In this document: piece by piece, positions 15,963 through 64,000 of the stretch
Layout: every line of letters begins with the position of its first letter
How positions within the stretch are numbered: position 1 is the first letter of the stretch
Position numbers and translations under genes: made by a program
The notes under the pieces: model-generated
Database searches by the model: none
What the model saw: only the letters and a program-made list of their open reading frames with translations
Told to the model about the DNA's origin: nothing
NCBI RefSeq assembly: GCF_026210795.1
Contig: NC_089429.1
Location: forward strand, 1,922,001 to 1,986,000
Direction of reading: 5' to 3'
DNA from: Rhizophagus irregularis
Taxonomy: Eukaryota
DNA: 64,000 nucleotides

Positions 15963-17009
15963 CTTGACAAGGCCTGAATCCAATAAATTAGCTGTTAGGT
16001 AAGGTGGAATACGCCATTGGACCTTACCGGTGAGAAATACCCGAGCTAAGTAGACCATTGGTCGTGTCCTGAACTAGTTTCACGAAAAATGAATTTTTTT
16101 ATTTTATAGGCATAATAAATTAATAACATAATGTATAATGATTACAAAACTTTTTATAGTAACATCATGGACGTAACTTCATACAATTTTGACGTATGAC
16201 GTAATTAAAAAATAATCAAATCATTAAAATAAATAAGAATATTAAATAAATTAGCATATTTTTTATTATTCATATATAATTAAAAATAATAACAATTACT
16301 GCTTCTTTTAATTAACAGCATTATTTAACATTTTTCTATATGCAATTTTACTATTACTATTTACTAGTATATAAACGAAGGATATAAATTCATAATGATA
16401 GCAGGTAAACAATTTACTCTAATCTAGTATTTAAAACATTATCAACTAATGTATGTCAATAGGATCAAATTCCATATTATTTTTAACTTAGTATTAGGTA
16501 TATTTAGTTCTTCACGCAATCCATTTTCTCCATCCTGAAAGATTGGATTTTGTAGATCTATAAAATCTTCTAAAATTATAGTAAATTTCGAAACTTAAAA
16601 GCAGTTTTCAAATAAAAAATAAAAATAAAAAGTTTATATTATTTATATTAAGTATATTAAATTTAACAAATGTTTATTATATGTATAAAGTAAAAAATTT
16701 AAAAGTAATTACGTCAAAAGTTTATGTAAAGTCTAAAAATCTAAAAAATCCATATGGCACATGTCATTTATGGCGTCATACGACAATGTGACGCTACTGA
16801 CGGGACACCCCATTCAGGTGATCATCAAAGGTTATAACCTTACGATTTATGTCACAAATGCATAGGTTATAACCTTATATGGGCGGCCCATGGGCCATAA
16901 TTTAATGTCACGTGACCCAATTTTTAATTCTGGCCTGACATGCGCAATTTTGGCATGTTAATTTTGGAACACGTTACATGCGCTAATTACTGTACATATT
17001 ACCCAGATG

Positions 17010-17830
17010 TAACATGCGGTGATTCAGACGCATGTTATTCATCTGTAACATGCGATAAATTGGGCGCATGTTACCTATCTGTAACATGCAGTGATTCAGA
17101 CGCATGTTACGGATGGGTAATATGCGTTAATTCTGGCGCATGTTACTCATTCATAACATGTGCTAATTTGGGCGCATGTTACGCTTCTGTAACATGCGTT
17201 AATTCTGGCGCATGTTACTCATCCGTAATATGCGTTAATTCTGGCGCATGTTACTCATCCGTAACATGCGTTAATTCTGGTGCATGTTACTCATCCATAA
17301 CATGCGTTAATTCTGGCGCATGTTACTCATCCATAACATGCATTAATTTTGTCACATGTTACACTTCTGTAACATGCGTTAATTCTGGCGCATGTTACTC
17401 ATTCGTAACATGCGCTAATTTGGGCGCATGTTACGCTTCTGTAATATGCGTTAATTCTGGTGCATGTTACTCATCTGTAACATGCGCTAATTTAGACGCA
17501 TGTTACACTTCTGTAACATGCGTTAATTCTGGCGCATGTTACTCATTCATAACATGCGCTAATTTGGGTGCATGTTACGCTTCTGTAATATGCGTTAATT
17601 CTGGTGCATGTTACTCATCTGTAACATGCGCTAATTTAGACGCATGTTACGCTTCTGTAACATGCGTTAATTCTGGTGCATGTTACTCATCCATAACATG
17701 CGTTAATTCTAGTGCATGTTACGCTTCTGTAATATACGTTAATTCTGGCGCATGTTACTCATCCGTAATATGCGCTAATTTGGGTACATATTACTGGCGC
17801 ATGTTCCCTACAGTAACATGCAGTAACTCT
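17010..17830 (+). repeat. 36-bp minisatellite (GTAACATGCGTTAATTCTGGCGCATGTTACTCATCC), ~22 copies
   Basis: Direct tandem units seen; translate as a 12-aa repeat. Confidence 0.95.
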
Positions 17831-18749
17831 AGTTTATATTCCTTACTGTAACATACAGTGATTTTAGTACATATTTTTATATCCAAAATACCTCAAAATC
17901 AATGCATATTATATTATAGAATATTGCATATTATGCATTAGAAATATATATAACTTTATTAAAGATGGCTATTTTTTTAAAATCAAAAAAATAATAAAAC
18001 AATAAAAATAACAAAAAAAAAAATAAACAAAAAAAAATAAACAAAAAAAAAATAAAAAAAAATAAACAAAAAAAAAATAAACAAAAAAAAAATAAACAAA
18101 AAAAAAAATAAACAAAAAAAAAAAATAAACAAAAAAAAAAATAAACAAAAAAAAAAAATAAACAAAAAAAAATAAAAATAACAAAAAACAAATGATTTGC
18201 ATAGTATATTTTAAAATTTATAAGTAATTAATTTTATGATCATGTAAATCACTTTACTGATGCAAATATAATAATCATTTGTTTTTTCTTATTCCTATAT
18301 ATTTAATTTTTTCTTTTTCATTTTTTATTTTTTTTATTTTTTTTTTTATTAATTTTATTTTTTTTATAATTTTATTTTTTTTTTTTGCTAGTTTTATTTT
18401 TTTTTTTGTTAATTTTTTATTGTTTTGCTATTTTTTTGCTGAAAATACTATTTCAAATAAATATAACAATTTAATATGAATTTTCTACTATAATATGTAG
18501 TAATCATGGCACATATTCCAGATGCTGTATATTATTTATTAATAAAATATGAAGTAATTTAGCATATATTCCAATGTAAATTTATAATGTATTTACAACA
18601 ATTCTTGCATATATTCCTGATGTATAATATGCAATATTCTATAATATAATGCAGTGATTCTGGTAATACTTAGTTTAAATATTTGATGTTTTAAACATAA
18701 GAACATGTGTCAGAAATCAGAATCATTGTAGTAAGGAATATGCATCAGA

Positions 18750-19460
18750 GTTACTACTAGGAAACATGCGCCAGAATTAGTGCATATTACAGATGAGTAA
18801 TATGTGCCAGAATTAACGTATATTACAGAAGCGTAACATGCGCCCAAATTAGCGCATGTTACGAATGAGTAATATGCACCAGAATTAACGCATATTACAG
18901 AAGCGTAACATGCGGTAAAATTAACGCATGTTACGGATGAGTAACATGCGCCAGAATTAACGCATGTTACGGATGAGTAACATGTGCCAGAATTAACGCA
19001 TGTTACGGATGAGTAACATGCGCCAGAATTAACGCATGTTACGGATGAGTAACATGCGCCAGAATTAACGCATGTTACGGATGAGTAACATGCACCAGAA
19101 TTAACGCATATTACAGATGAGTAACATGTGCCCAAATTAGCGCATGTTACAGAAGCGTAACATGCGTCTAAATTAGCGCATGTTACGGATGAATAATATG
19201 CACCAGAATTAATGCATATTACAGAAGCGTAACATGCGCCCAAATTAGCGCATGTTATGAATGAGTAACATGCACCAGAATTAACGCATGTTACAGAAGC
19301 GTAACATGTGGCAAAATTAACGCATGTTACGGATGAGTAACATGCGCCAGAATTACGCATGTTACGGATGAGTAACATGCGCCAGAATTAACGCATATTA
19401 TGGATGAGTAACATGCGCCAGAATTAACGCATGTTACATCTGGATAACATGTACAGTAAT
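18750..19460 (-). repeat. Inverted copy of the 36-bp minisatellite, ~19 copies
   Basis: Reverse complement of the 17010-17830 array. Confidence 0.95.
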
Positions 19461-19797
19461 TAACGTATGTAATGTGTTCCAAAATTAACATGCCAAAATT
19501 GCGCATGTTGGGCCAGAATTAAAAATCAGGTCACGTGACATTAAATTATGGCCCATGGGCCGCCCATATAAGGTTATAACCTATGCATTTGTGACATAAA
19601 TCGTAAGGTTATAACCTTTGATGATCACCCGAATGGGGTGTGATGGGATGGGAAAATTCCATTTTTATAATAAATGAATAAATCGGAATTTTTGCTGTAT
19701 TATGGAATTTTCATAAATTTTAATGATTTTATTCCAACACGTGATAATTAACCAATCATAGATGTGGATTAGCGTATTTTAAAAAATTTTTTAAGGG

Positions 19798-32811: not shown

Positions 32812-33106
32812 CACTGGTCAAAAACCAATATATCGGGTAGCAGATATGTATCAGATATGTACCCGATATGTGTAGTATTAATGCAGAAAATCGGGTACCC
32901 GATATGTGTAAGATATATGTAAATATATATATCATATACATATCGGGTACCGATATGTATATGATATGTAAATGATATGTAGACGATATATATATTTACA
33001 CATATCTTACACATATCGGGTACCCGATTTTCTGCATTAATACTACACATATCGGGTACATATCTGATACATATCTGCTACCCGATATATTAGTTTTTGA
33101 CCAGTG
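32812..33106. mobile_element. CACTG-ended (CMC/CACTA-type) palindromic MITE
   Basis: CACTGGTCAAAAA...TTTTTGACCAGTG, almost fully palindromic; 3-bp TSD TAT. Confidence 0.92.
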
Positions 33107-53885: not shown

Positions 53886-55173
53886 GCTGATGGGTAAAAG
53901 AGTGAACGGCTGTTGATGAATAAAAAGTTAATAAATTTGACTATATAATTAATTAGTTTCATATTTACTATTAGAAAAAGCTGGTTTTTAAATACTAGTA
54001 CCGTAACTATATAAAACTTTACAAACAAAACGCGTCCAGCTCTTATAAAATGTATAAATGCAGTTCTTCTTCGTTAAACTCTATGAAAAGAGATATTTGT
54101 AAGTTATTTTCAATAAAAGTTTTGACTTATAATCACACAGCTTTATCATTTTCTTCACCTTCAGAATCCAATGGGTTTTTGCCAAATCTAATGGGTATTT
54201 TTTTTTTATTAGGGTGTTTTGAGGTGTTTACGAGGTATTCTTAGGTATTTAGACGAGGATCAACACGTTTATTGACCAATAAAATTTGAAAATTTGTCGC
54301 ACATGAATTCCTAAATAGGGTCCAAAATCTGCAGATCGGCGGATATGCACAATATGATAGGATCAGCGGATAATAATAAAAACTTAACTATGAGACCGTG
54401 ACCCAAAGGTCACACTTGGCTTATATCAATAAGTAAAATAGCTGGGAACAAACCACTTCGCTAACTACGTTCAGTTTATTTGCAATGTTCATTTGGGATG
54501 TTCATTTGAAATCGTTGGTATTCATTCTGACCTGGGACGCCACATATTCGATATTCTCCAAAGTCGTCGGGCTGGTAGTGTGTCTCGCTAGCGCTCACCC
54601 CACCTCAGCCACGGCCTCGCAGTACCTACATCCCCCTTCCGTGGGGGTATGACTCCCCATATATCTGTCCATATCTGTCCCCATATCTGTCCCATAAATA
54701 TATAACCAAAAACCAGAAAACAATAGAAAAGGAAGCAAAAGAAGAGAGAATAAGAGGGGGGGGGCAGATGGGACAAATGGGACAGATATTTCAGAAATAT
54801 AGGAAAGGACATCCCCCAGAAAAAGTTTTATTTTTACCCCCCAAAATGCGTCCCATCGGTCCCGTCTGTCCCAAAAAATCTGTCCCACATTTCTTAGCCT
54901 CCAATCGGCTTTTCGAACTGATAACAGGTAGGTCAGCGGGTAGGTTTATATCTTCGGTTAGCGGGTTGATTACTTTTATGTAAAGCGAACGCAGTGAGCA
55001 AGTAAGCGGGTAATCTGCACTTCTAACATACTCAGGTAAACATATTACTCTGACATGCAAGTATAATCCCTAGAAGGTCTGTAGAACCGCAGGAGGATAA
55101 CCGGGTAGGAGCGCGGATCTTTGGAAAAAATACATTCGGCAATTGAAGATTAGGTAACTATAAGTAACATACA

Positions 55174-55689
55174 ATGATAAACTTACACGCCGCCACTTCT
55201 CTTGCCGAAGACCTCGGACTTGATCTTGTAGACATCTATGGAATCCGTAAATGGATCCAAATGCGGGCATCGCCTCTCAACGACCCAGACATAGTAAGAG
55301 AAATGGTCAGAAACCTTCCGATCAAAGAATTCGGAAAACATCTCAAGATAAACAGACTCTGGTATAACTGTTGTAAAGCCGAGTTGTGGAAGCGGCATAA
55401 AGAAGCCGAAGAGGTATACAAACAGGCAGTAGACTACTACAAGGAAGCCATTGACAATTTCAATGAAGCCGATCAGAAAAAATACACCAGGTTTGCAGGG
55501 ATGGTAGTAATAGAAAGAGCACTCCTCAGATGCGGCTTTATAACGCAAGAGTCCGACTGGGAGAAATGGACTCAAATAACGTACAACATCCAATTGCTTA
55601 AGGAAGGTCGCACTCTTGATGACTCGGATGATGAATCAGATGATGGAGAGATATCTCTCGATGACTCAGATGATGAAGAATACTTTTAG
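55174..55689 (+). CDS. Hypothetical protein with acidic tail (element gene)
   Basis: Intact 171-aa ATG ORF; stop lies 9 bp from the convergent neighbour. Confidence 0.6.
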   Translation: MINLHAATSLAEDLGLDLVDIYGIRKWIQMRASPLNDPDIVREMVRNLPIKEFGKHLKINRLWYNCCKAELWKRHKEAEEVYKQAVDYYKEAIDNFNEADQKKYTRFAGMVVIERALLRCGFITQESDWEKWTQITYNIQLLKEGRTLDDSDDESDDGEISLDDSDDEEYF

Positions 55690-55698
55690 AAGGCAGTA

Positions 55699-56019
55699 CT
55701 AATCCGTCTTCCTCTTTTTTGCCTCCTTAAGGCATTTATCAATACACTGTTTACACGCATCATCGGCCTCTAAAATTTTCTGCTTAAGTTTTTTGCATTG
55801 CCGATTGTACGCCGTCTGATGTCTTTTAGCCGCGGTTTCTTTTTTCTTCTCCTTAGTTTTCTTTTTGATAACCCAGTCTATCCCAGTAAAAGTATTCTTG
55901 TGCATACCACAAACTGTGCAATCACCATGCAGCCGGTAACGCCCATTTGTGGTTATATCTTGTATTTCACTAGCAGTCTCGGTTTCTTTCTTACACTTTA
56001 GGCAGTAAAATCGTGTCAT
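55699..56019 (-). CDS. Small basic zinc-ribbon protein (DUF5679-like)
   Basis: ATG 56019; FYCLKCKKET...NGRYRLHGDCTVCGMHKNTF followed by a Lys-rich tail. Confidence 0.7.
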   Translation of the reverse strand: MTRFYCLKCKKETETASEIQDITTNGRYRLHGDCTVCGMHKNTFTGIDWVIKKKTKEKKKETAAKRHQTAYNRQCKKLKQKILEADDACKQCIDKCLKEAKKRKTD

Positions 56020-56063
56020 CTTAAGATTTGAAGTCCGAAATCTTTCCTTTAATTTGTCATAAT

Positions 56064-57435
56064 ATGTCGCATTTAGAGAATTATTACAAATACTACAATC
56101 TCTCCGGAGTACCAGCACGAATTCTAAAAGGTGAGGAGCACTACAATCTATACAAAAAGCCCCTAAAGGAAAAGTCATCAGAGCGTCCACGAGTAGTTGT
56201 ATGGAAACCAAATGCGACGCATCAGGCAGATCTCGCAGAGATGCCAGTCGACCCCAAAGGATTCCACTATTTCCTCGTAGTGGTAGAAGTCGCGAGTAAA
56301 CGAGTTGACGCAGAACTCCTAAAGGATAAAACCGCAAATAGGGTTCTCAATGGATTTGTCAAAATCTACAGAAGAAATCGCATTAAGCCACCAACACATC
56401 GAATAGAGACAGACTCTGGATCAGAATTCACCAATGATCAGGTACGTGATTTTTTCCTGAACAGCCTAGGGGTGATGATGAGGTTCGGAGAACCAGGAAG
56501 ACATAAACAGCAATCATACGCTGAACGAGCTATCCAAGCTATTCAAGAACCTCTTCTCAAACGAATGGTGGCACAGGAGTTGAAGACCGGGGTGACATCC
56601 GTGGAATGGTCAGAAGATTTCCATGATGTAGTTAATAAAATAGATAAACTCTGGCAAAGAAATCCCCCAGACATTCTGACTGGGTCACCCAAAGTGTCAA
56701 AAAAGACGGAACTTCTTTCTGAAGGAACGCGTGTCCAAGTAAAGTTAGATGAACCTATCTCAGTACTCGGTAATAAACTTCATGGAAAATTTCATACAGG
56801 AGACATAAGATGGAATCCCAATATCCGTGTCATCAAAAAAATGATCCTCTCACCCGACACTGGTAAAAAAATGGTCTATCCTACACATCCTACACATATC
56901 TTACATATATCGGGTACTCAAAATGTAGAAAATCATACACAAATAATACACATATCATACACATATCGGGTACTTATATATATAGTATACCTATCAGGTA
57001 CCTGATATATGTATGATATATATATTAGTACCTGATATGTGTATGATATGTGTATTATTTGTGTATGATTTTCTACATTTTGAGTACCCAATATGTGTAA
57101 GATATGTGTAGGATAAATCATTTTTTTACCAGTGCGAACAGCCTCCTACGTATCTTCTTGATGGGCCACACGGGCGTCTAGGTGTATCCAGATGTGCGTA
57201 CACCCGAAAAGAGTTGCAGATTGTTCCAGAAAATGAATATCCCCCACCTGACTTTGTGATAAGAGGGCAACCCGAAAGATTTGTACCTGAGCGGATACTC
57301 CGGCATCGCATCAGGAAGGGTCAAGACCAGTATCTAGTCAAGTGGGAATGATACCCAGATACCAAAGCCACTTGGGAACCCGCTGACTGGTTGGAGGAGG
57401 ATGTTCCCGATTTAATTTGCAAATTTTGGGAATAA
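56064..57435 (+). pseudogene. rve-family DDE integrase with C-terminal chromodomain, disrupted by a MITE
   Basis: HQADL, ETDSGSEF, AERAIQAI; frame restored after MITE removal (SPEQPPTYLL..YTRKELQIV); chromodomain FVPERIL..YLVKWE*YP..ATWEP; TAA 57433-57435. Confidence 0.9.
56858..57134. mobile_element. CACTG-ended palindromic MITE inside the integrase
   Basis: CACTGGTAAAAAAATG / CATTTTTTTACCAGTG; 3-bp TSD CGA; related to 32812-33106. Confidence 0.92.
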
Positions 57436-57449
57436 AAAATAAATATTCC

Positions 57450-58181
57450 CTATTTTTTGTCTCCTCGATTCACGTCAGAAACTATCGGGATAAAAACATT
57501 CTTCTCATTACAAGTAAGGGCGATATGTTTACGTGATTCATGGACATCATAATTGTAACGTTTCAGACACGTTCGGCTCAATCCAATCTCCCTATGCTTG
57601 TAATCGCTTAAAACCGCGAGATTCTCAGTGATTACACAATCAGGGGTTAGTTTGATTAACACACCTTTTACCATGCCGAATGTCCTACCAGAACCCGGAG
57701 CGCTGGATATGTTATGTGTAATACTCTTGTCGATATCCAACCCTAATTCCTCAGCGGCTTCTCTCTGAATAAAAGACGCGTTAGCACAGGTGTCTGCTAA
57801 ACACTGAATTGCTATCCCATTGACCTCCCCATCCAGCGCTAAAAGATCTTTAGTATTCTCCAAACGAGCTATGTCAATATCCATCGGGTCATCTTCCCTG
57901 ATATCCTCTTCTTGTTTTTCCTCAACTAGGTCTTCCGGAATCTCTGTACTTTTACGAACAGACTTTAATTCTTCCCGAAGAATCTCGCGGAGTAATTTCC
58001 TAAAATCTGCAGACCTTAATAAACTTAATGAATCATTTTTGGTGACAGCTTTTATAAGTGTGGACTTACTACTAGTAACCTTCACAGGAATCTTAATAGG
58101 AGTCATTTTAACTGATTTTTTTGGAACAGATTTAAGAAGTTTCGAGATACTTACACCCTTATCCGAGTTTACTTTTTTTTT
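57450..58181 (-). CDS. Retropepsin-like aspartic protease in the -1 frame downstream of gag
   Basis: GEVNGIAIQCLADTCANASFI and EIGLSRTCL motifs; ends at TAG 57450 with no RT domain following. Confidence 0.85.
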   Translation of the reverse strand, partial: KKKVNSDKGVSISKLLKSVPKKSVKMTPIKIPVKVTSSKSTLIKAVTKNDSLSLLRSADFRKLLREILREELKSVRKSTEIPEDLVEEKQEEDIREDDPMDIDIARLENTKDLLALDGEVNGIAIQCLADTCANASFIQREAAEELGLDIDKSITHNISSAPGSGRTFGMVKGVLIKLTPDCVITENLAVLSDYKHREIGLSRTCLKRYNYDVHESRKHIALTCNEKNVFIPIVSDVNRGDKK

Positions 58182-59647
58182 GTACTTCGAACCGCACAAA
58201 TCCGAAAACCACCTTCCTCATCGGGAACAAATTTCAAGTCATCAAAACTTGCGGTATTAGTATCAATATCCATAGCATCATCATTAAGATCGAGGTTTCT
58301 CATTGCTCAGGCTAATTCCAGATCATCGCGTCTATCTTTAGCCTTCTGAAGTCGCTTTGGAAATCTTTTAGACGTCTCATATCCCATAATAAGATCAATA
58401 ACATGTTGATCATCCTCACTAGTCCATTCAGGAGCATCAGGGTCATCACCAACATCATGATTTACATAACCATCATCCCAATCAGGATCCTGATGATCCT
58501 GAACAACACGTCTCTGTGGTTTTGGTCGAACAGGTTTAATCTGTTGTCTATAGACCGGTGGTGGTTTAAATGCTTGTAATTGTTTAAATTGCGCCTGGAA
58601 ATTCTTGGTAAGTTCCTCGGCCTGTGTCTTAAGCAATTCTTGTAATCGTTCTTAAGTAATAACGTCTGTCGACCTTTGCATTACAGCACCTTCGTGTGGA
58701 GTCACAGGATGAGTATAGCCAGCCAATTCCTCTTTTTTAGCCTTTTCAATACCCTGGCGCCTTTGTAATCCATAGAACATTTCGCCCTTTCATCGCTCAA
58801 GATCACTCAATCTATCGATTAATATATTAAGAGGTGCCGCCCCGATTCTGGAAGCTTCAATAACGTTTTCCGGCAAAAGTCCTCTATAGAACTGGTCAGT
58901 AACCATAATTCGATTATATCTTACAATATCCCCAGCCCTCTCAACTCGCTTATAGTAAGATCGAACAGGTTCGCCTTATTCCTGGTAAAGGTTACTAAAT
59001 CGTATCTGAAGTCTTTCTTCCACGACGGTTGGAAAATTTGTGCGCATAGGCATAAATGCTTGATCCAGGAGAATCCCCTGTAAGACTATCGGTTGATTCT
59101 GAACAGCAGCATTAAATGGACCTCCATGATTTCCCAACCCATTAACGGGTTGATGAGTAGGACGTCCGCCCGCACGCCTCCACTGCTCTTCAACTTTAAA
59201 ATTTGATCTAACGATATCAGCGCGTGATGAGAAAAATGCATCTCCAACAGTTACCGCCGCATTACCTGCAATCCTTGAATATACATCAGCATCAGACCCG
59301 GGTAAGTAAGTACCAACATGTAATCCATTAGCAACCTCAGGAACAGCCAAAGCTCTGAATGCTCGGCGAGTGGCACCGGCTCCACCATTTGCAGCAGCCA
59401 CTAACCGAATATTCGAGAGTTCCCAATTTTTTCCAGTAAGTTCTGCATCAAACCACCTCGCCGCTTCATCTCTCATACAGCTACGAAGAACCCCCATCGC
59501 TCTCACCCAACCAGGAGGCGCACCAGCATCGTCCAATGGATCAATACCAACGGTATTAATATACCCTAAAAAGTTATCAATAAAAAGATTAAGATCTTCA
59601 TCTTCCTGACCATGAAATATGGGGGCAGCTATACCAACGGCAGCCAT
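58169..59647 (-). pseudogene. Ty3/gypsy-type Gag (capsid) with four premature stops
   Basis: PIFHGQEDEDL..F, AARWF, MHR-like LYQE*GEPVRSYYKRV, QFYRGL; same-frame stops at 58976, 58790, 58652, 58307; natural end STKKK-TAA at 58169. Confidence 0.8.
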
Positions 59648-60333
59648 ATCGTATTTTGTGGATGGTTGAGAGGAGGTGGAGGAGGGTTCAATTGTCTAAT
59701 CCGAAACCATTGTACTTGGATACGCAGAGCGGCTATTTGTTGGAAAAGTCGATTCCTAAGACATCCCAATGTCCGAATTCCAAAAAGAACCCGATTATTG
59801 GCATATACAAGCTGATTTCGTATTGCATCACGCTCGCCTATAGCTCTATTACGTTCACCTATAGCTCTATTACGTTCTCCTCTCATAAGATTATATTGCT
59901 GCTGAAGACGACGATTAGTCATCCGCATACCACCAAACTCACGTTCCAATTCAGCCAAATTAGCTTCCAAACCAGTAATAGTATCTTGTACGATATTTAG
60001 CTCATCTTGTGTAAGACCTAACAAACCTGTTTGAACCTCGAGTTCATCTTGTAATTCATCGCGTTCTTTTCGAGATCGATCACGTTCTGCTTTTAATATA
60101 TCGCGTTCTTCGTATGTTTCACTACAGCGATGAATTAATAAATTAAGAGCATGTTTAAGACGATGGTTTGCATTTTGTACATCTCGATTAACAACCATGC
60201 GATCACTAACAGTTAAAAAATCTGTTAGATCCTTAATTACCGCAACTAATGGTATATTATTCATATCACGCAAATCCCTAAAAGGCGGTCCAGTAGGCTC
60301 TGAAGGAGTATAAATTGCAATTGGTGTCGACAT
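59629..60333 (-). CDS. Coiled-coil protein overlapping the gag start (possibly the gag N-terminus separated by an indel)
   Basis: 234-aa ORF with heptad repeats (GERNRAI) and a poly-Pro tail; overlaps the gag ATG by 19 bp. Confidence 0.65.
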   Translation of the reverse strand: MSTPIAIYTPSEPTGPPFRDLRDMNNIPLVAVIKDLTDFLTVSDRMVVNRDVQNANHRLKHALNLLIHRCSETYEERDILKAERDRSRKERDELQDELEVQTGLLGLTQDELNIVQDTITGLEANLAELEREFGGMRMTNRRLQQQYNLMRGERNRAIGERNRAIGERDAIRNQLVYANNRVLFGIRTLGCLRNRLFQQIAALRIQVQWFRIRQLNPPPPPLNHPQNTIWLPLV

Positions 60334-60364
60334 CGTATTTAAACTAAGTTAGAATAAAATTCAA

Positions 60365-61587
60365 ATGGATCTTTATGTATACAATTTGGACGAGTACACA
60401 ACCGACTCGAGACAGGTAATGAGTTTGCTCCATCATGGCCTTTCCGTCTTGCCGTAGCAGGAAGTTCTGACTCGGGTAAGACAACTATGATCATTAATTT
60501 GTTAATGGGAGACAAGAAGGCAAAGGAGGATGGCGAAAGGTACATATTATGTGATGCGGTAATTCTAGTTGGCAGATACCTCGATGAACCAAAGTGGGCA
60601 GTCGTACGTGAATTTTTCAAAGAAGAAGAAATTCTGTTTACCGCAGTATCCCATAGTGAGATTCCAAATGTTAAGGACTTCAACTCCACCCAGGCTACTG
60701 TGGTAATCTTCGAGGATTTGATGGATGCGCCTAAAAAAACCCAGGATCTCATCACTGGATTTTTTACACACGGACGACACAAAAATATTTCATGTATTTA
60801 TGTGGCCCAAAGATTCTTTACCATTCCCAAGGCTATTCGTGAAAATGTGAATTATATTTCCCTACATGGAGGTCACAGAAGTTTGACCGATACTAAGAGG
60901 ATTATCCGCCAGTATACAGAAGAATCGGAGTCACTAGCTCCAGTAATCGATGACCTTACTCTACAACGCGAATTTATAGTATTTGATCTTAGAAGATCCA
61001 AGAGCGATCCGTTATCTATTCGGGTTAGATGGGATACTAGTCTCAGTTCAATCACTGATCAATCCCCGTTCGATCCGAGTTTGAACCTAGTTCAATCCCT
61101 GTTCGATCCAAGTTTGAACCCAGTTCGATCCCCGTTCGATCCGAGTTTGAACCCAGTTCGATCGAAGTTTAGTCCCTATGGCCAGAAAGCCGTAGCTGAA
61201 GCAAAAAAGTCCTCCCAGCTAATCGAGTTTGCTCGGGAATATCCATCACCTAAAGAGAGAAAACACCTCCTCGTATCCGGTGTTATAGCTAAGAATACAG
61301 ATACCTGGATTAAGTACGTCTTTCGGGAAGCCTACAGACTATCTGGTAAGACCCTGGGATCAGACTTCCAAAACTTCTTAGCAAAAGTACGGGATAGGAC
61401 CACAAAGGCTGAAATTCCAAAACCTGAGACCGTAAAGGAGTTATTCTCCCGATATGAAGTCCTGAAGTCTAGTTACCCTTTGGATAATAAAAAATTAATA
61501 GAAGGCATCGGGGTCCTTTTACAGATCTTTTCTAAGGGTCATATGGACCGTCGAGCATTACGAGTAGGGATCAATAGTATTTTGTAA
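60365..61587 (+). CDS. A32/FtsK-HerA-like DNA packaging ATPase with C-terminal extension; probable indel near the 5' end
   Basis: Walker A AVAGSSDSGKTT (60451-60486, in frame upstream of the tracked ORF), Walker B VVIFEDL, GRHKNISCIYVAQ and IRENVNY; ATG 60365 is in another frame up to ~60415. Confidence 0.85.
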
Positions 61588-62131
61588 GAATCTCGCGAAG
61601 TTCTTCCTCAGAAGCCCTAAGAATCATGGCGCTTTTTTTACGTCCTTCGAAGTCAATCCGTAGCATCATAGCTTTTAACCCAATAGCTCCTAAGGCTCGA
61701 GAAGCAAAGTTCTTAGTCATCGGATTTCTTACATGACTTACATAGTTCTCATAGAATGTAGTAAAGGGTTCGTCAATACCATCTGGGTATGTATTCTGTA
61801 AGAACTGATATAAGGCAATTTCCCCACTGTCACATCCAATGGCTATAAGCTGTTCAAGAAGCCACTTCCTAGTATCCTCGTATGAATCTCTGTCCATAAT
61901 TTTCATATCAAGTCTTTGTGTGAATAATTGTGTAAAATCCGCATTACTTGCCCGACGAATAATCTGGACCAACTTATCCCTGGCAAGTCCCAAGGCTTGT
62001 AAAGGTTCACTCTCGTCGCCAATCTTCTTTATAATCTGTCTATACAACACGCTGGATAATCCTCTATATGCCGCTTTTGCAGAGAATACTCCACAGTTCT
62101 GACACTGGTTTATTACGATTGATGTTGACAT
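61571..62131 (-). CDS. Hypothetical protein, possible C-terminal winged-helix DNA-binding domain
   Basis: Intact 186-aa ORF; FTTFYENY..NPMTKNFASRAL resembles D5/RFX-type wHTH; overlaps the ATPase stop. Confidence 0.55.
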   Translation of the reverse strand: MSTSIVINQCQNCGVFSAKAAYRGLSSVLYRQIIKKIGDESEPLQALGLARDKLVQIIRRASNADFTQLFTQRLDMKIMDRDSYEDTRKWLLEQLIAIGCDSGEIALYQFLQNTYPDGIDEPFTTFYENYVSHVRNPMTKNFASRALGAIGLKAMMLRIDFEGRKKSAMILRASEEELREILTKYY

Positions 62132-62283
62132 GGCTATCTTTCTTTGATTATTCGCTCACTTAGTATCGTTCACAATCTTTTTTATATATTGTTATCTTTA
62201 AATACCTGTCATTTGTAGAAAAAAAAATAACTGGCATTAAGGGATCAATCGTTGGAAAGACCGGAAGACCGGAGGACTGACCA

Positions 62284-62868
62284 TTAGGAAGCGCAGTCCT
62301 TGCACAACTTGTCCGTTAAGTCACTCGGGCTTACAGGCATGAGACATTCCCTACACAACTCAATATTAAGCTCTGCAAGTCTCGGGGCATGGTCCTCCAA
62401 AGTTCGTGGACGACCGGAAGGACCGGAGGAAGGTGTCCCATTAGTCGTATCCTGCTGTAAGATAAAATCATCATATTCATCTTGGTCAGCCTGAATAGCG
62501 GCCCTGATTTGTTGTATATCATTGAAAGTTAACCGCTGGCCATCAAGATTTTCCTCATTATAGCGTGTTTCATTGATGATTTCCTCTATAAGCTCCTCCT
62601 CTTCAGAATGAACAAGGTAGTAGTCCTCGACTACCTCGTAGTCACTCTCAACCAGTCTATGATACGTTCTAGTACCGTGTTGAATATAGCGTCCTGTATC
62701 TGTATTTAAATATACAGGTTGTTCCTGGGGTGGAGGCAGTGCAGTTTGTCTACGGATAAGCCTTCCATTGATATAATCATGGGATTCCATAACTATTCGA
62801 TTAAAGGTATCTCCACCAACACGGATTGGACGTCCGGTTATAGGATTAGTTATATAAGGGTATGACAT
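62284..62868 (-). CDS. Protein with two NPxTGRxI repeats (viral 2-cysteine-adaptor-like) and a C-terminal CxxC..CxxC
   Basis: ITNPITGRPIRVGGDTFNRI and YLNTDTGRYIQHGTRTYHRL; CRECL..LCKDC. Confidence 0.65.
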   Translation of the reverse strand: MSYPYITNPITGRPIRVGGDTFNRIVMESHDYINGRLIRRQTALPPPQEQPVYLNTDTGRYIQHGTRTYHRLVESDYEVVEDYYLVHSEEEELIEEIINETRYNEENLDGQRLTFNDIQQIRAAIQADQDEYDDFILQQDTTNGTPSSGPSGRPRTLEDHAPRLAELNIELCRECLMPVSPSDLTDKLCKDCAS

Positions 62869-62975
62869 GTCTTTTTTCTGTACGTGTCTACATACCTAAT
62901 TGTTATCTTCAATTTACAATAACCAAGTGACATCGTCATCAGTCCTTGTCAAGGCAAACATGGCATAGTAGCCTT

Positions 62976-64000
62976 TATCTTTATTAAATTTATTTATCGA
63001 ACTTACAAAAATAAAACAAAATTTTCAAAGTACAAAAAGAAAAATAAAATTAACTAAAAACAAAACTATATAGTCTCCAAAACAGTAATAAAGCTATAAA
63101 ATTAATTCAAAAAGGAAAAAATCGCATAACACTAAAACTATCCTGATCTTCCGCCTAGATATATTCCAACCTAAGAAGAAGCAACTATGCAAACAAACCA
63201 ACGAACAATGCGCCCATTATTAAAATCGACACACCACCCTGCTAAAGCTGTTAGTAAGTTGCACCGTTAGACGACCCATAAAACCCGAATAGTGATTAAA
63301 CCAAGGCAAACCATATTTCAACGAGTTCTTTAAATAATCAACGTCGGAGTCACGTGTGGCGTCGGAAAGGGTCGGAGGAGGTAAAGTTGAGAAAGGTAAG
63401 TACGTAGACTTTGGCAAATTTGAAGGCCGAGAAAGTTTGAGTTTATGAGTAATATTCATCGCGTCTTCCCATTTAGATTTATCATAGGAGCGCGGTAGCC
63501 AAATTCGTTTTCTAATCTTTTGGATAAAGTGATTGTGGATAGCAGAGATAATCTTCATCGCAGAGTTACGTGGAATAGAAAGTTCTTCAAAAAATTCTAC
63601 AAAGGATTTTGGAAGGCAGCCACGGACGAGGCTATATGAAGTCCAATTTGAAGAAGAAAAGGACCAACAAGGAAGAGATTTAAAGTTGTTAATAATTAAA
63701 GAGGGATCTTTCTTAACGAGATCACCAGCTTCTTGGAGTTTGTTGATAAAGTGATGTTGGTACGAGAGGAGAATCTGTTCCATAGCGATTCGTCTACATT
63801 TGCACATAAACAAGTGCATGAAATCTTCCTTGGAGTCGAGGCACGAACGACACAATAAAATGTCGATATACAAGTCCGGGCGAATTCTTTTAAGATGTTC
63901 CAAGGTAGGCAAATCTTCCAAAAAGAGTTTGAATTTAAAGGTGCGATGAAAGGAAGCATGAGCATGAGTAAATGAAGCATCATGCTGAGGTTCAGAATTT
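62976..64000 (-). mobile_element. 3' end of a non-LTR retrotransposon (LINE): ORF2 C-terminus ending at 63220 plus 3' UTR
   Basis: zf-RVT-like LPTLEHL..CRSC...EDFMHLFMC and RIWLPR; T-rich 3' UTR ending in AATAAA-rich sequence; ORF is open to the window edge. Confidence 0.8.

Follow-up and report, generated by a model that had tools for sequence, protein, structure and literature searches.

Gene content of the window copy and its family

We examined a 64,000-nt stretch of Rhizophagus irregularis DNA (NC_089429.1, positions 1,922,001 to 1,986,000), hereafter the window. Around 55141..62914 lies a Polinton-type element that exists in Rhizophagus in multiple copies; this one is broken, right-truncated and dead. 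Its left part carries ORF A (171 aa, 55174..55689, plus strand), which has no Pfam match at the cutoff, a DUF5679 protein (106 aa, 55699..56019, minus strand; E 1e-17), and an rve integrase with a chromodomain (56064..57435, plus strand; rve 2e-10, Chromo 1.5e-6). The integrase, 363-364 aa long in relatives, is broken here and contains a MITE-like palindromic insertion with inverted arms (56858..57134) that is absent from other copies (joint 56854-57135). The minus strand then holds a retropepsin-type aspartic protease frame (57450..58217; Asp_protease_2 2e-7), a Gag-like protein recognized by alignment and broken by stops and frameshifts (58169..59647), and a coiled-coil protein that overlaps the Gag-like start (59629..60333). 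Relative to the Gag-like protein, the protease frame is shifted by -1, with the shift at an A-run. An A32-like ATPase follows on the plus strand (60365..61587; Pox_A32 1e-10), with a frameshift near its start in the window copy; the ATG at 60365 is the true start, and intact homologues open with MDLYVYNLDEY. Two minus-strand genes complete the copy: ORF E (186 aa, 61571..62131), conserved in the family (14 loci), and ORF F (194 aa, 62284..62868), with a weak 2C_adapt match under the cutoff (E 9e-4).

Related loci add further Polinton features. A protein-primed PolB of 624-628 aa is present in L015, L036, and L046, and its PF03175 homologues are named R. irregularis, R. clarus, and Diversispora. 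PolB is missing from the window copy, where both the rve integrase and the A32-like ATPase, also Polinton features, are present. In one lineage, terminal inverted repeats are visible as a 100% inverted match of L006:1-123 to L046:9718-9840. Measured from one innermost repeat edge to the other, the family is ~12 kb long, and none of the ORFs inside the inverted ends encodes an RNA polymerase. This chromosomal, multi-copy arrangement with an integrase and ~12 kb of genes differs from a transpoviron, a ~7 kb episome that travels in giant-virus particles.

No jelly-roll capsid or cysteine protease was seen in the family. Within the inverted ends of L006+L046, each ORF of at least 90 aa either falls into another family or is small, at 106-197 aa, which leaves none of capsid size; this reading is by ORF assignment and length, with fold prediction applied to the Gag-like protein. 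The Gag-like protein of an intact relative (L014 model, pLDDT 64) is predicted to have a capsid C-terminal fold, with a best Foldseek E of 4.5e-3 and a TM(target) of 0.75 to PEG10. VIA gave this model a Z of 9.1 (rmsd 3.2, 82 aligned), and its top 34 rows were all Gag/Arc capsid-type. A Gag capsid fold and a retropepsin are features shared with LTR retrotransposons. The scanned ORFs gave no RT or RNase H match, however, and the gag-pol order and LTRs of such elements are lacking: the integrase is on the strand opposite Gag-Pro, and the element ends are inverted repeats.

Upstream motif and T-run ends

The initial annotation reported A[AT]TT[GA]AA heptamers upstream of every gene start. Re-reading the sequence bore out the coordinates, strands and ATG distances of all seven listed sites, as well as the 44- and 31-bp spacers of the divergent pairs. 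AATTGAA lies 26 nt upstream of ORF A (55141..55147, plus; held-out PWM rank 4 of 17038 positions, asfar-trained score 7.2), and ATTTGAA 31 nt upstream of the integrase (56026..56032, plus; asfar-trained score 6.1, outside the top 30 of the element-trained PWM). DUF5679 is preceded at 28 nt by AATTAAA (56048..56054, minus; PWM rank 15), the ATPase at 21 nt by ATTTAAA (60337..60343, plus; rank 7), and the coiled-coil ORF at 26 nt by ATTTGAA, which overlaps the ATPase ATG (60360..60366, minus; rank 9, asfar-trained score 7.0). The AATTGAA 39 nt upstream of ORF F (62908..62914, minus) ranks first and has an asfar-trained score of 8.5; the element ends abruptly ~15 nt beyond it. The ATTTAAA of ORF E (62197..62203, minus) shares the extension GATAACAAT with the ORF F site and is a positional outlier at 65 nt. 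Other copies have a shorter ORF E spacer, with TTTGAA 30 nt upstream of the same ATG (read by eye from the alignment table). The word "every" needs amending: the protease start has no motif, and an AATTGAA absent from the first list lies 39 nt upstream of the Gag-like ATG, within the coiled-coil ORF (59687..59693, minus).

In the window, 6/7 starts have the motif at a gap of 18-45 nt (shuffle mean 0.41; 0/20000 shuffles reach 6), a circular count given that the motif was built from these same seven. The whole element has 15 matches, 7 of them extra ones away from gene starts. The real test is a held-out set of 70 gene starts from soil-metagenome relatives. There the motif occurs 18-45 nt before the ATG in 31/70, against 6.9±2.5 in shuffled sequence; 0/1000 dinucleotide shuffles reach this count and the reverse strand gives 13. 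The signal is thus specific to the coding strand, with its maximum between -25 and -40. The range of 21-39 nt from the initial annotation gives 30/70 vs 4.6, and when each gene family contributes a single start from every cluster at 80% identity, the mean is 21.7/50 vs 5.2. Non-divergent genes, at 16/24 vs 3.4 (reverse strand 3), are also enriched. De novo EM on element starts recovered WWTTRRA.A (log-likelihood 74 vs 19-26 on shuffles), 20-48 nt from the ATG (median 30) and at 20-23 nt in 10/53 anchored sites. A relaxed motif is found in 10/13 gene families. Gag starts clear of the coiled-coil ORF have AATTGAA at 25-31 nt in 3/3 cases, and those overlapped by it show a relaxed match in 2/10. 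We consider it very probable that the heptamer is a real cis-element.

One heptamer pattern is indeed enriched, as first proposed, but it splits into two classes. TTGAA precedes tandem genes (10/24 vs 1.2), while divergent genes are preceded by TTAAA (21/46 vs 7.3) or TTAGA (8/46 vs 2.3); WTTAAA is the commonest variant in the element (29/70). Divergent spacers, 31-78 nt across the family, are near-palindromic and kin by descent, so these counts are partly non-independent. Reading TTAAA as the ATTAAA of an upstream gene, a minor host poly(A) signal, was rejected: TTAAA is at chance before tandem genes (8/24 vs 5.5), and its enrichment lies at divergent pairs, which have no gene ending on the same strand. 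ATTAAA past stops is found at 11/59 ends (vs 8.2).

Gene ends carry a second signal. A run of at least six T lies within 100 nt past the stop in 44/59 unit ends (A6+ in 13; shuffles 8.1), with none at the 18 coiled-coil/Gag ends. Such runs are depleted in element coding strands (11 vs 34.0±3.8), whereas A6+ is not (148 vs 138), and ten other window ORFs show no T6+ depletion (10 vs 10.6). Predicted terminators in the window are a T6 run past the ORF A stop (55715..55720, plus) and back-to-back T6 runs (57434..57458) between the convergent integrase (plus, 57453-57458) and protease (minus, 57439-57434). Further runs are a T6 past the ORF E stop within the ATPase gene (61489..61494, minus), a T7 past the ATPase stop within ORF E (61633..61639, plus), and a T9 past the ORF F stop (62219..62227, minus); DUF5679 has no T6 within 100 nt past its stop. 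AATAAA, the main host poly(A) signal (56.7%; PMC10234402), is not enriched past unit ends (5/59 vs 7.7).

Candidate polymerases

We compared these signals with 16 asfar-like viral loci. Their contigs show the motif (63/181 vs 21.5), T6+ ends (93/177 vs 47 for A6+), and coding strands low in T6+ (61 vs 135) with A6+ unchanged; this pattern was not found in 23 other RNAP-bearing viral loci. The asfar-like promoter motif obtained de novo, AWAWTTGAA (PWM consensus AWAWTTGAAT), predicts element sites. With the asfar-only PWM, 12/24 non-divergent element starts exceed the host 90th percentile (shuffles 15%, p 7e-7). Above threshold are 4/7 window starts and 2/10 other window ORFs, the latter a host control of 10 ORFs only, part of them transposon-like. 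The PWM came from EM with per-sequence backgrounds; EM with a pooled background caught GC-rich composition and had zero predictive value. Divergent genes score weakly and symmetrically (11/46; reverse strand 10), and WTTAAA is not enriched in asfar-like contigs (48/181 vs 40.7). Sharing of a promoter with giant viruses is seen at the sequence level, for the TTGAA class and with asfar-like viruses in general.

The initial annotation had proposed a cytoplasmic-virus polymerase, with two models. Neither fits well: the mimivirus early promoter AAAATTGA occurs in strict form at 0/70 held-out starts, and the yeast plasmid UCS ATNTGA at 6/70 vs 3.8, a count that 178/1000 shuffles reach. The broader proposal stands on the held-out enrichment, the T-run ends and the asfar cross-prediction. 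We regard a promoter read by a viral-type polymerase as likely, and an asfar-like helper as somewhat favoured. Taken together, the motifs and T-runs probably serve an asfar-like giant virus acting as helper, whose RNA polymerase would use them as promoters and terminators, a reading to which we give a probability of roughly 60%.

Relatives of the element ATPase, PolB, and D5 protein were not found among the viral contigs, nor were ATPase relatives among the genome contigs; in an RPB1 search aimed at the endogenous virus of the fungus, Rhizophagus did not appear by name in the 120 matches listed of 278. R. irregularis strain 4401 is described as carrying an endogenous virus related to Asfarviridae, which has a capping enzyme and RNAP subunits; it was found in 1/5 strains, lacks a major capsid gene, and is a silenced relic (PMC10640383). 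Mavericks are reported among the recently expanded R. irregularis transposons (PMC8647823); set beside an endogenous virus found in 1/5 strains and lacking a capsid gene, this expansion could mean helper-free spread.

The strongest alternative, though an unlikely one, is that the motif is a compact host nuclear Pol II promoter (a TATA-like or factor site) of a nucleus-replicating Maverick, with the T-runs as fungal 3'-end elements. The element does integrate and is multi-copy, AT-rich motifs are generic (relaxed WTTRRA matches in 4/10 other window ORFs), and TATAWAW is mildly enriched (17/70 vs 10.0), but without strand specificity (reverse 16). The 20-23 nt gaps are too short for a TATA-to-start spacing of ~24 bp (PMC7163114), and the 31-78 nt spacers contrast with the host, whose UTRs average 116 nt (the 5'UTR) and 250 nt (PMC10234402). 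The unenriched AATAAA and the one-sided avoidance of coding T-runs also speak against host signals. Poly(A) RNA depth over the genes is at most 2.5 per strand (three runs, same species label), which host silencing would explain too and which does not discriminate helper dependence.

Rather improbable is that the signals are relics of a helper-dependent ancestor, with present copies moving as nuclear transposons. The window copy is broken, many database homologues are truncated, and no dsDNA virus infecting fungi is known, according to PMC10640383. Against this, both signals are kept across lineages ~50-60% identical in the ATPase, on contigs with uninterrupted ORFs, and they persist in differing spacers and before non-homologous genes; such persistence requires selection during recent activity.

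We give still less credence to a helper of another kind, a yeast VLE-type cytoplasmic linear plasmid or other non-asfar virus with its own polymerase. The UCS lies 20-40 nt before the ATG, the same distance as here, but VLE termination is tied to stem-loops (PMC6211774). The TTAAA/TTAGA class is unmatched in the asfar-like set, yet ATNTGA is unenriched and the tandem-gene sites are predicted by the asfar-trained motif. Least credible of all is that the T-runs serve host RNA polymerase III, whose transcripts are uncapped and poorly translated, or that AT-rich spacers give rise to both motifs incidentally: T6 runs occur in 19% of 100-nt host tiles (102/529), but symmetrically with A6 (106 tiles), unlike the element ends, and composition-preserving shuffles never attain the observed counts, which refutes the composition-only part. 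Pol III does likewise terminate at poly(U) (PMC7163114).

Meaning and closest known systems

If an asfar-like helper transcribes the element, the element would be silent in the nucleus until infection; transcription would then begin ~10 nt past the motif, so that leaders are short, and stop at the T-runs. The TTGAA class would be early-type, serving the polymerase, helicase-side, and accessory genes, and the TTAAA/TTAGA class with ATATA a second, possibly late type for the ATPase and the coiled-coil/Gag/protease unit. The protease would be made by -1 frameshifting from the Gag-like frame, which would account for its lack of a promoter.

If an abundant fungal Maverick keeps promoters and terminators of an asfar-like virus, repeated infection of these fungi by that virus or its kin must have taken place, with the element as a possible inducible parasite of the virus or defence against it. 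The fullest picture is tentative and on balance doubtful: a family of endogenous virophage-like elements widespread in arbuscular mycorrhizal fungi, woken by an asfar-like giant virus, their DNA packaged in a retropepsin-matured retroviral-type Gag capsid instead of a jelly-roll one. If true, it would point indirectly to a hybrid particle of Polinton and retroelement, and to giant dsDNA viruses that still infect fungi. Element transcripts could mark infected field isolates, and the combination of motif, T-run ends, and one-sided avoidance of T-runs in coding strands could sort Polintons into nuclear and helper-dependent ones.

In the yeast plasmids pGKL1/2, one element depends on the polymerase of the other. 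They resemble the fungal element in a conserved motif 20-40 nt before each ATG (PMC6211774), whereas the element lacks ATNTGA enrichment, has an integrase, and ends genes at T-runs, not stem-loops. Polintons/Mavericks of Glomus/Rhizophagus are mentioned in PMC11296320, PMC8647823, and bioRxiv 2026.06.19.733378. A PolB element bearing Gag and retropepsin was already drawn, as the legend shows, in Fig. 5 of PMC8502044; one text supplement of that paper does not mention Rhizophagus, Glomus, or retropepsin. These Polintons and the "Matrix/Capsid/NC/Pro + S3H" element of Fig. 5, as far as legend and passages go, are probably the same family as the one here, with PolB, integrase, and A32-like ATPase in Rhizophagus; those passages contain no analysis of promoters, terminators, or helper dependence. 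A literature search, covering few subscription papers, found nothing published on how mycorrhizal Polintons are transcribed from their promoters or depend on a helper.

Virophages and PLVs (mavirus/EMALEs, PMC8547959; PgVV, bioRxiv 2022.07.28.501842) are likewise integrating, with rve integrase, protein-primed PolB, D5-like helicase, and A32-like ATPase, and a shared motif upstream of their genes has been read as a sign of helper dependence. The element differs in its fungal host, in a motif that is neither TCTA nor AAAATTGA, and in having a Gag-fold protein and retropepsin where jelly-roll capsid and cysteine protease were not found. Asfuvirales (ASFV EPM, Inr, and poly(T), PMC7163114; pacmanvirus, PMC11788076) share with it an AT-rich TTGAA-core motif ~20-35 nt upstream of the ATG, T-runs past genes, coding-strand T-run avoidance, and short leaders (predicted for the element); unlike them, it has TTAAA/TTAGA as its commonest variant, no strict AAAATTGA in the 70 starts, and no RNA polymerase. 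The pacmanvirus transpoviron pltv (PMC11788076) is, like the element, linear with TIRs, and it carries promoters of its asfar-like helper, as the element probably does; it is a 7 kb episome, whereas the fungal family is ~12 kb and integrating, with its own polymerase and putative particle genes.

Gene content of the element

The Polinton-type element at approximately 54.4-62.9 kb has a GC content of about 40%; most of the window lies at 20-37%. The whole stretch belongs to a family that is highly repeated in DNA runs, and its ATPase matches many R. irregularis proteins with up to 94% identity over nearly the full length. Pfam matches in the element are DUF5679, rve, chromodomain, aspartic protease, and Pox_A32. 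A metagenome scan yielded 58 loci, of which the longer ones keep the gene order of the window and also carry an F-box-like gene, a protein-primed PolB, and a D5-like helicase. In one lineage the element ends are inverted repeats, and the ORFs between them include neither an RNA polymerase nor an unassigned ORF of capsid size. The window copy is broken, with its right side cut off by a repeat (62930-64000) that has high coverage in poly(A) RNA. The ORF of this repeat has no Pfam match at the cutoff; we take its end to resemble the C-terminus of a non-LTR retrotransposon.

Other repeats were seen in and around the element. A MITE-like palindrome lies inside the integrase (56858-57134), with a second member of this family of related repeats near 32850-33080, and an 11-nt tandem repeat within the ATPase gene (61034-61174) encodes a variable linker. 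A GTGACCC...GGTCAC hairpin is part of a 44-nt repeat that occurs four times (39086, 44795, 49787, and 54385), the last at the left edge of the element. At 16800-19640, a 36-nt unit forms two inverted arrays around a low-complexity core, and both arrays contain a Cys-rich repeat ORF (16940-17851, plus strand; 18710-19378, minus strand). One lineage (L025:2151-5681 and L021) encodes, near the ATPase, a different PolB-like protein of 1176 aa that matches Endonuclease_7, which suggests polymerase exchange.

A coiled-coil/Gag-fold/retropepsin unit occupies 57450-60333 on the minus strand and is also found in L014 (501-3930), L006, L010, L024, L035, and L055. The predicted fold of the ORF preceding the protease resembles a Gag capsid domain (Foldseek E >0.001; pLDDT of the model, 64). 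Behind an A-run, the protease occupies the -1 frame in the window and in 8/8 relatives checked. No jelly-roll capsid was seen in the element, which has this unit beside PolB, the D5 helicase, and an A32-like ATPase; the unit may exceed the promoter in novelty. The Fig. 5 legend of PMC8502044 names a Gag/retropepsin/S3H element that may represent the same family.

Motifs upstream of gene starts

The initial annotation described seven A[AT]TT[GA]AA heptamers before gene starts between 55141 and 62914. All seven are present as written. The distances to the start codons, the short spacers of the two divergent gene pairs, and the extension GATAACAAT common to two sites likewise match that description. 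The outlying 65-nt gap before ORF E is peculiar to the window copy; judged by eye, the spacer is shorter in other copies, where TTTGAA stands 30 nt away from the ATG.

N-terminal homology served to curate a set of 165 starts that contained no fragments or internal starts; for coiled-coil starts the procedure was automatic. After dereplication at 70%, 92 remained, and 70 held-out starts were kept once 13 Gag starts and the 9 belonging to the window's own cluster had been taken out. The proposed enrichment holds in these relatives: at a gap of 18-45 nt, a range picked after data inspection, the motif precedes 31/70 starts versus 6.9±2.5 in dinucleotide shuffles (0/1000), and at the 21-39 nt of the annotation itself, 30/70 versus 4.6. 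When each family contributes a single start per 80% cluster, the average is 21.7/50 versus 5.2. Among the non-divergent genes of the 70 starts, the count is 16/24 versus 3.4 (reverse strand, 3). The sites are also restricted in position, peaking at -25 to -40. Matches occur in 75 of 1766 host tiles and before one of ten other window ORFs. De novo EM recovered WWTTRRA.A, and of the seven annotated sites, six rank 15th or better out of 17038 positions when scored with a PWM built from the relatives; several internal sites rank there too. Free-standing Gag starts carry AATTGAA in 3/3 cases, and overlapped Gag starts a relaxed match in 2/10.

The single motif first proposed combines two classes, TTGAA at tandem genes and TTAAA/TTAGA at divergent genes. 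Tandem genes prefer WTTGAA (10/24 versus 1.2; WTTAAA 8 versus 5.5), and divergent genes WTTAAA (21/46 versus 7.3) and WTTAGA (8/46 versus 2.3). In ATPase and coiled-coil starts, ATATA comes after WTTAAA/WTTAGA.

T-runs at gene ends

After five internal nonsense stops were dropped, 59 unit ends were left, 44 of which have a run of at least six T within 100 nt of the stop (equivalent A-runs, 13; shuffles, 8.1). Six of the seven unit ends within the window have such a run, and none of 18 coiled-coil or Gag ends does within 100 nt. Inside 76 coding sequences we counted 11 T-runs versus 34.0±3.8 expected under synonymous shuffling, with A-runs at 148 versus 138; ten other window ORFs served as a control, with 10 T-runs versus 10.6. 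We conclude that the upstream motif is a genuine signal, which forms a virus-type promoter/terminator pair together with the T-runs. In L009, L015, and L024, the T-run of ORF F sits between the ORF E motif and the ORF E ATG, so that the terminator is interleaved with the next promoter.

Transcription from a host Pol II promoter is the leading alternative, and an unlikely one. AATAAA, present at 56.7% of host poly(A) sites, is not enriched after element ends (5/59 versus 7.7), and the mean lengths of host UTRs are 116 and 250 nt (PMC10234402).

Comparison with asfar-like viruses

A scan for an RNA-polymerase motif gave 67 viral loci, including a clade of 23 with RPB1 mostly of 1410-1470 aa that contains ASFV; for its remaining members, the label asfar-like is taken solely from their place in the tree. 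We compared 39 of the 67, namely 16 asfar-like loci, each from a different tip cluster, and 23 unclassified loci that are AT-rich. The asfar-like set has the motif at 63/181 starts versus 21.5, T-runs at 93/177 ends versus 47 for A-runs, and a one-sided avoidance of coding T-runs (61 versus 135). The other 23 loci show a weak motif count (30/328 versus 19.5; shuffle maximum 32) and no T bias at ends, and their coding T- and A-runs are both depleted. EM on asfar-like upstream regions with a per-sequence background returned AWAWTTGAAT, which exceeds the host 90th percentile at 12/24 non-divergent and 11/46 divergent element starts (reverse strand, 10), at 4/7 window starts, and at 2/10 other ORFs. 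In ASFV itself, according to PMC7163114, the EPM precedes the start site by 9-10 bp, median 5'UTR lengths are 14 and 9 nt, and ends are poly(T).

Dependence on an asfar-like virus as helper is the best explanation, with a probability of roughly 60%. In three poly(A) RNA runs, which represent at most two samples and are matched by species label only, so that the strain may differ, depth over element genes is 0-2.5 per strand versus 40-220 on the flanking repeat. This low depth fits equally well with no helper, host silencing, or non-polyadenylated RNA; that the motifs and T-runs are relic signals is improbable. Another helper is less probable still. WTTAAA is not enriched in the asfar-like set (48 versus 40.7), which leaves the TTAAA/TTAGA class unexplained by asfar-like viruses. 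The two models named in the initial annotation fit poorly, with the mimivirus early promoter AAAATTGA at 0/70 held-out starts and the yeast linear-plasmid UCS ATNTGA at 6/70 versus 3.8. Pol III or composition is a very improbable source of the motifs and T-runs.

Also cited here, in part, are works on pacmanvirus (PMC11788076), yeast plasmids (PMC6211774), an R. irregularis endogenous virus (PMC10640383), EMALEs (PMC8547959), PgVV (bioRxiv 2022.07.28.501842), and Rhizophagus Mavericks/Polintons (PMC8647823, PMC11296320, bioRxiv 2026.06.19.733378), with further excerpts from PMC4028283, PMC5294985, PMC10328495, and bioRxiv 697771. In the literature searched, we found no report of a helper-dependent lifestyle for a fungal Polinton that carries a Gag-type structural module. 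Such a lifestyle is already known from virophages and transpovirons.
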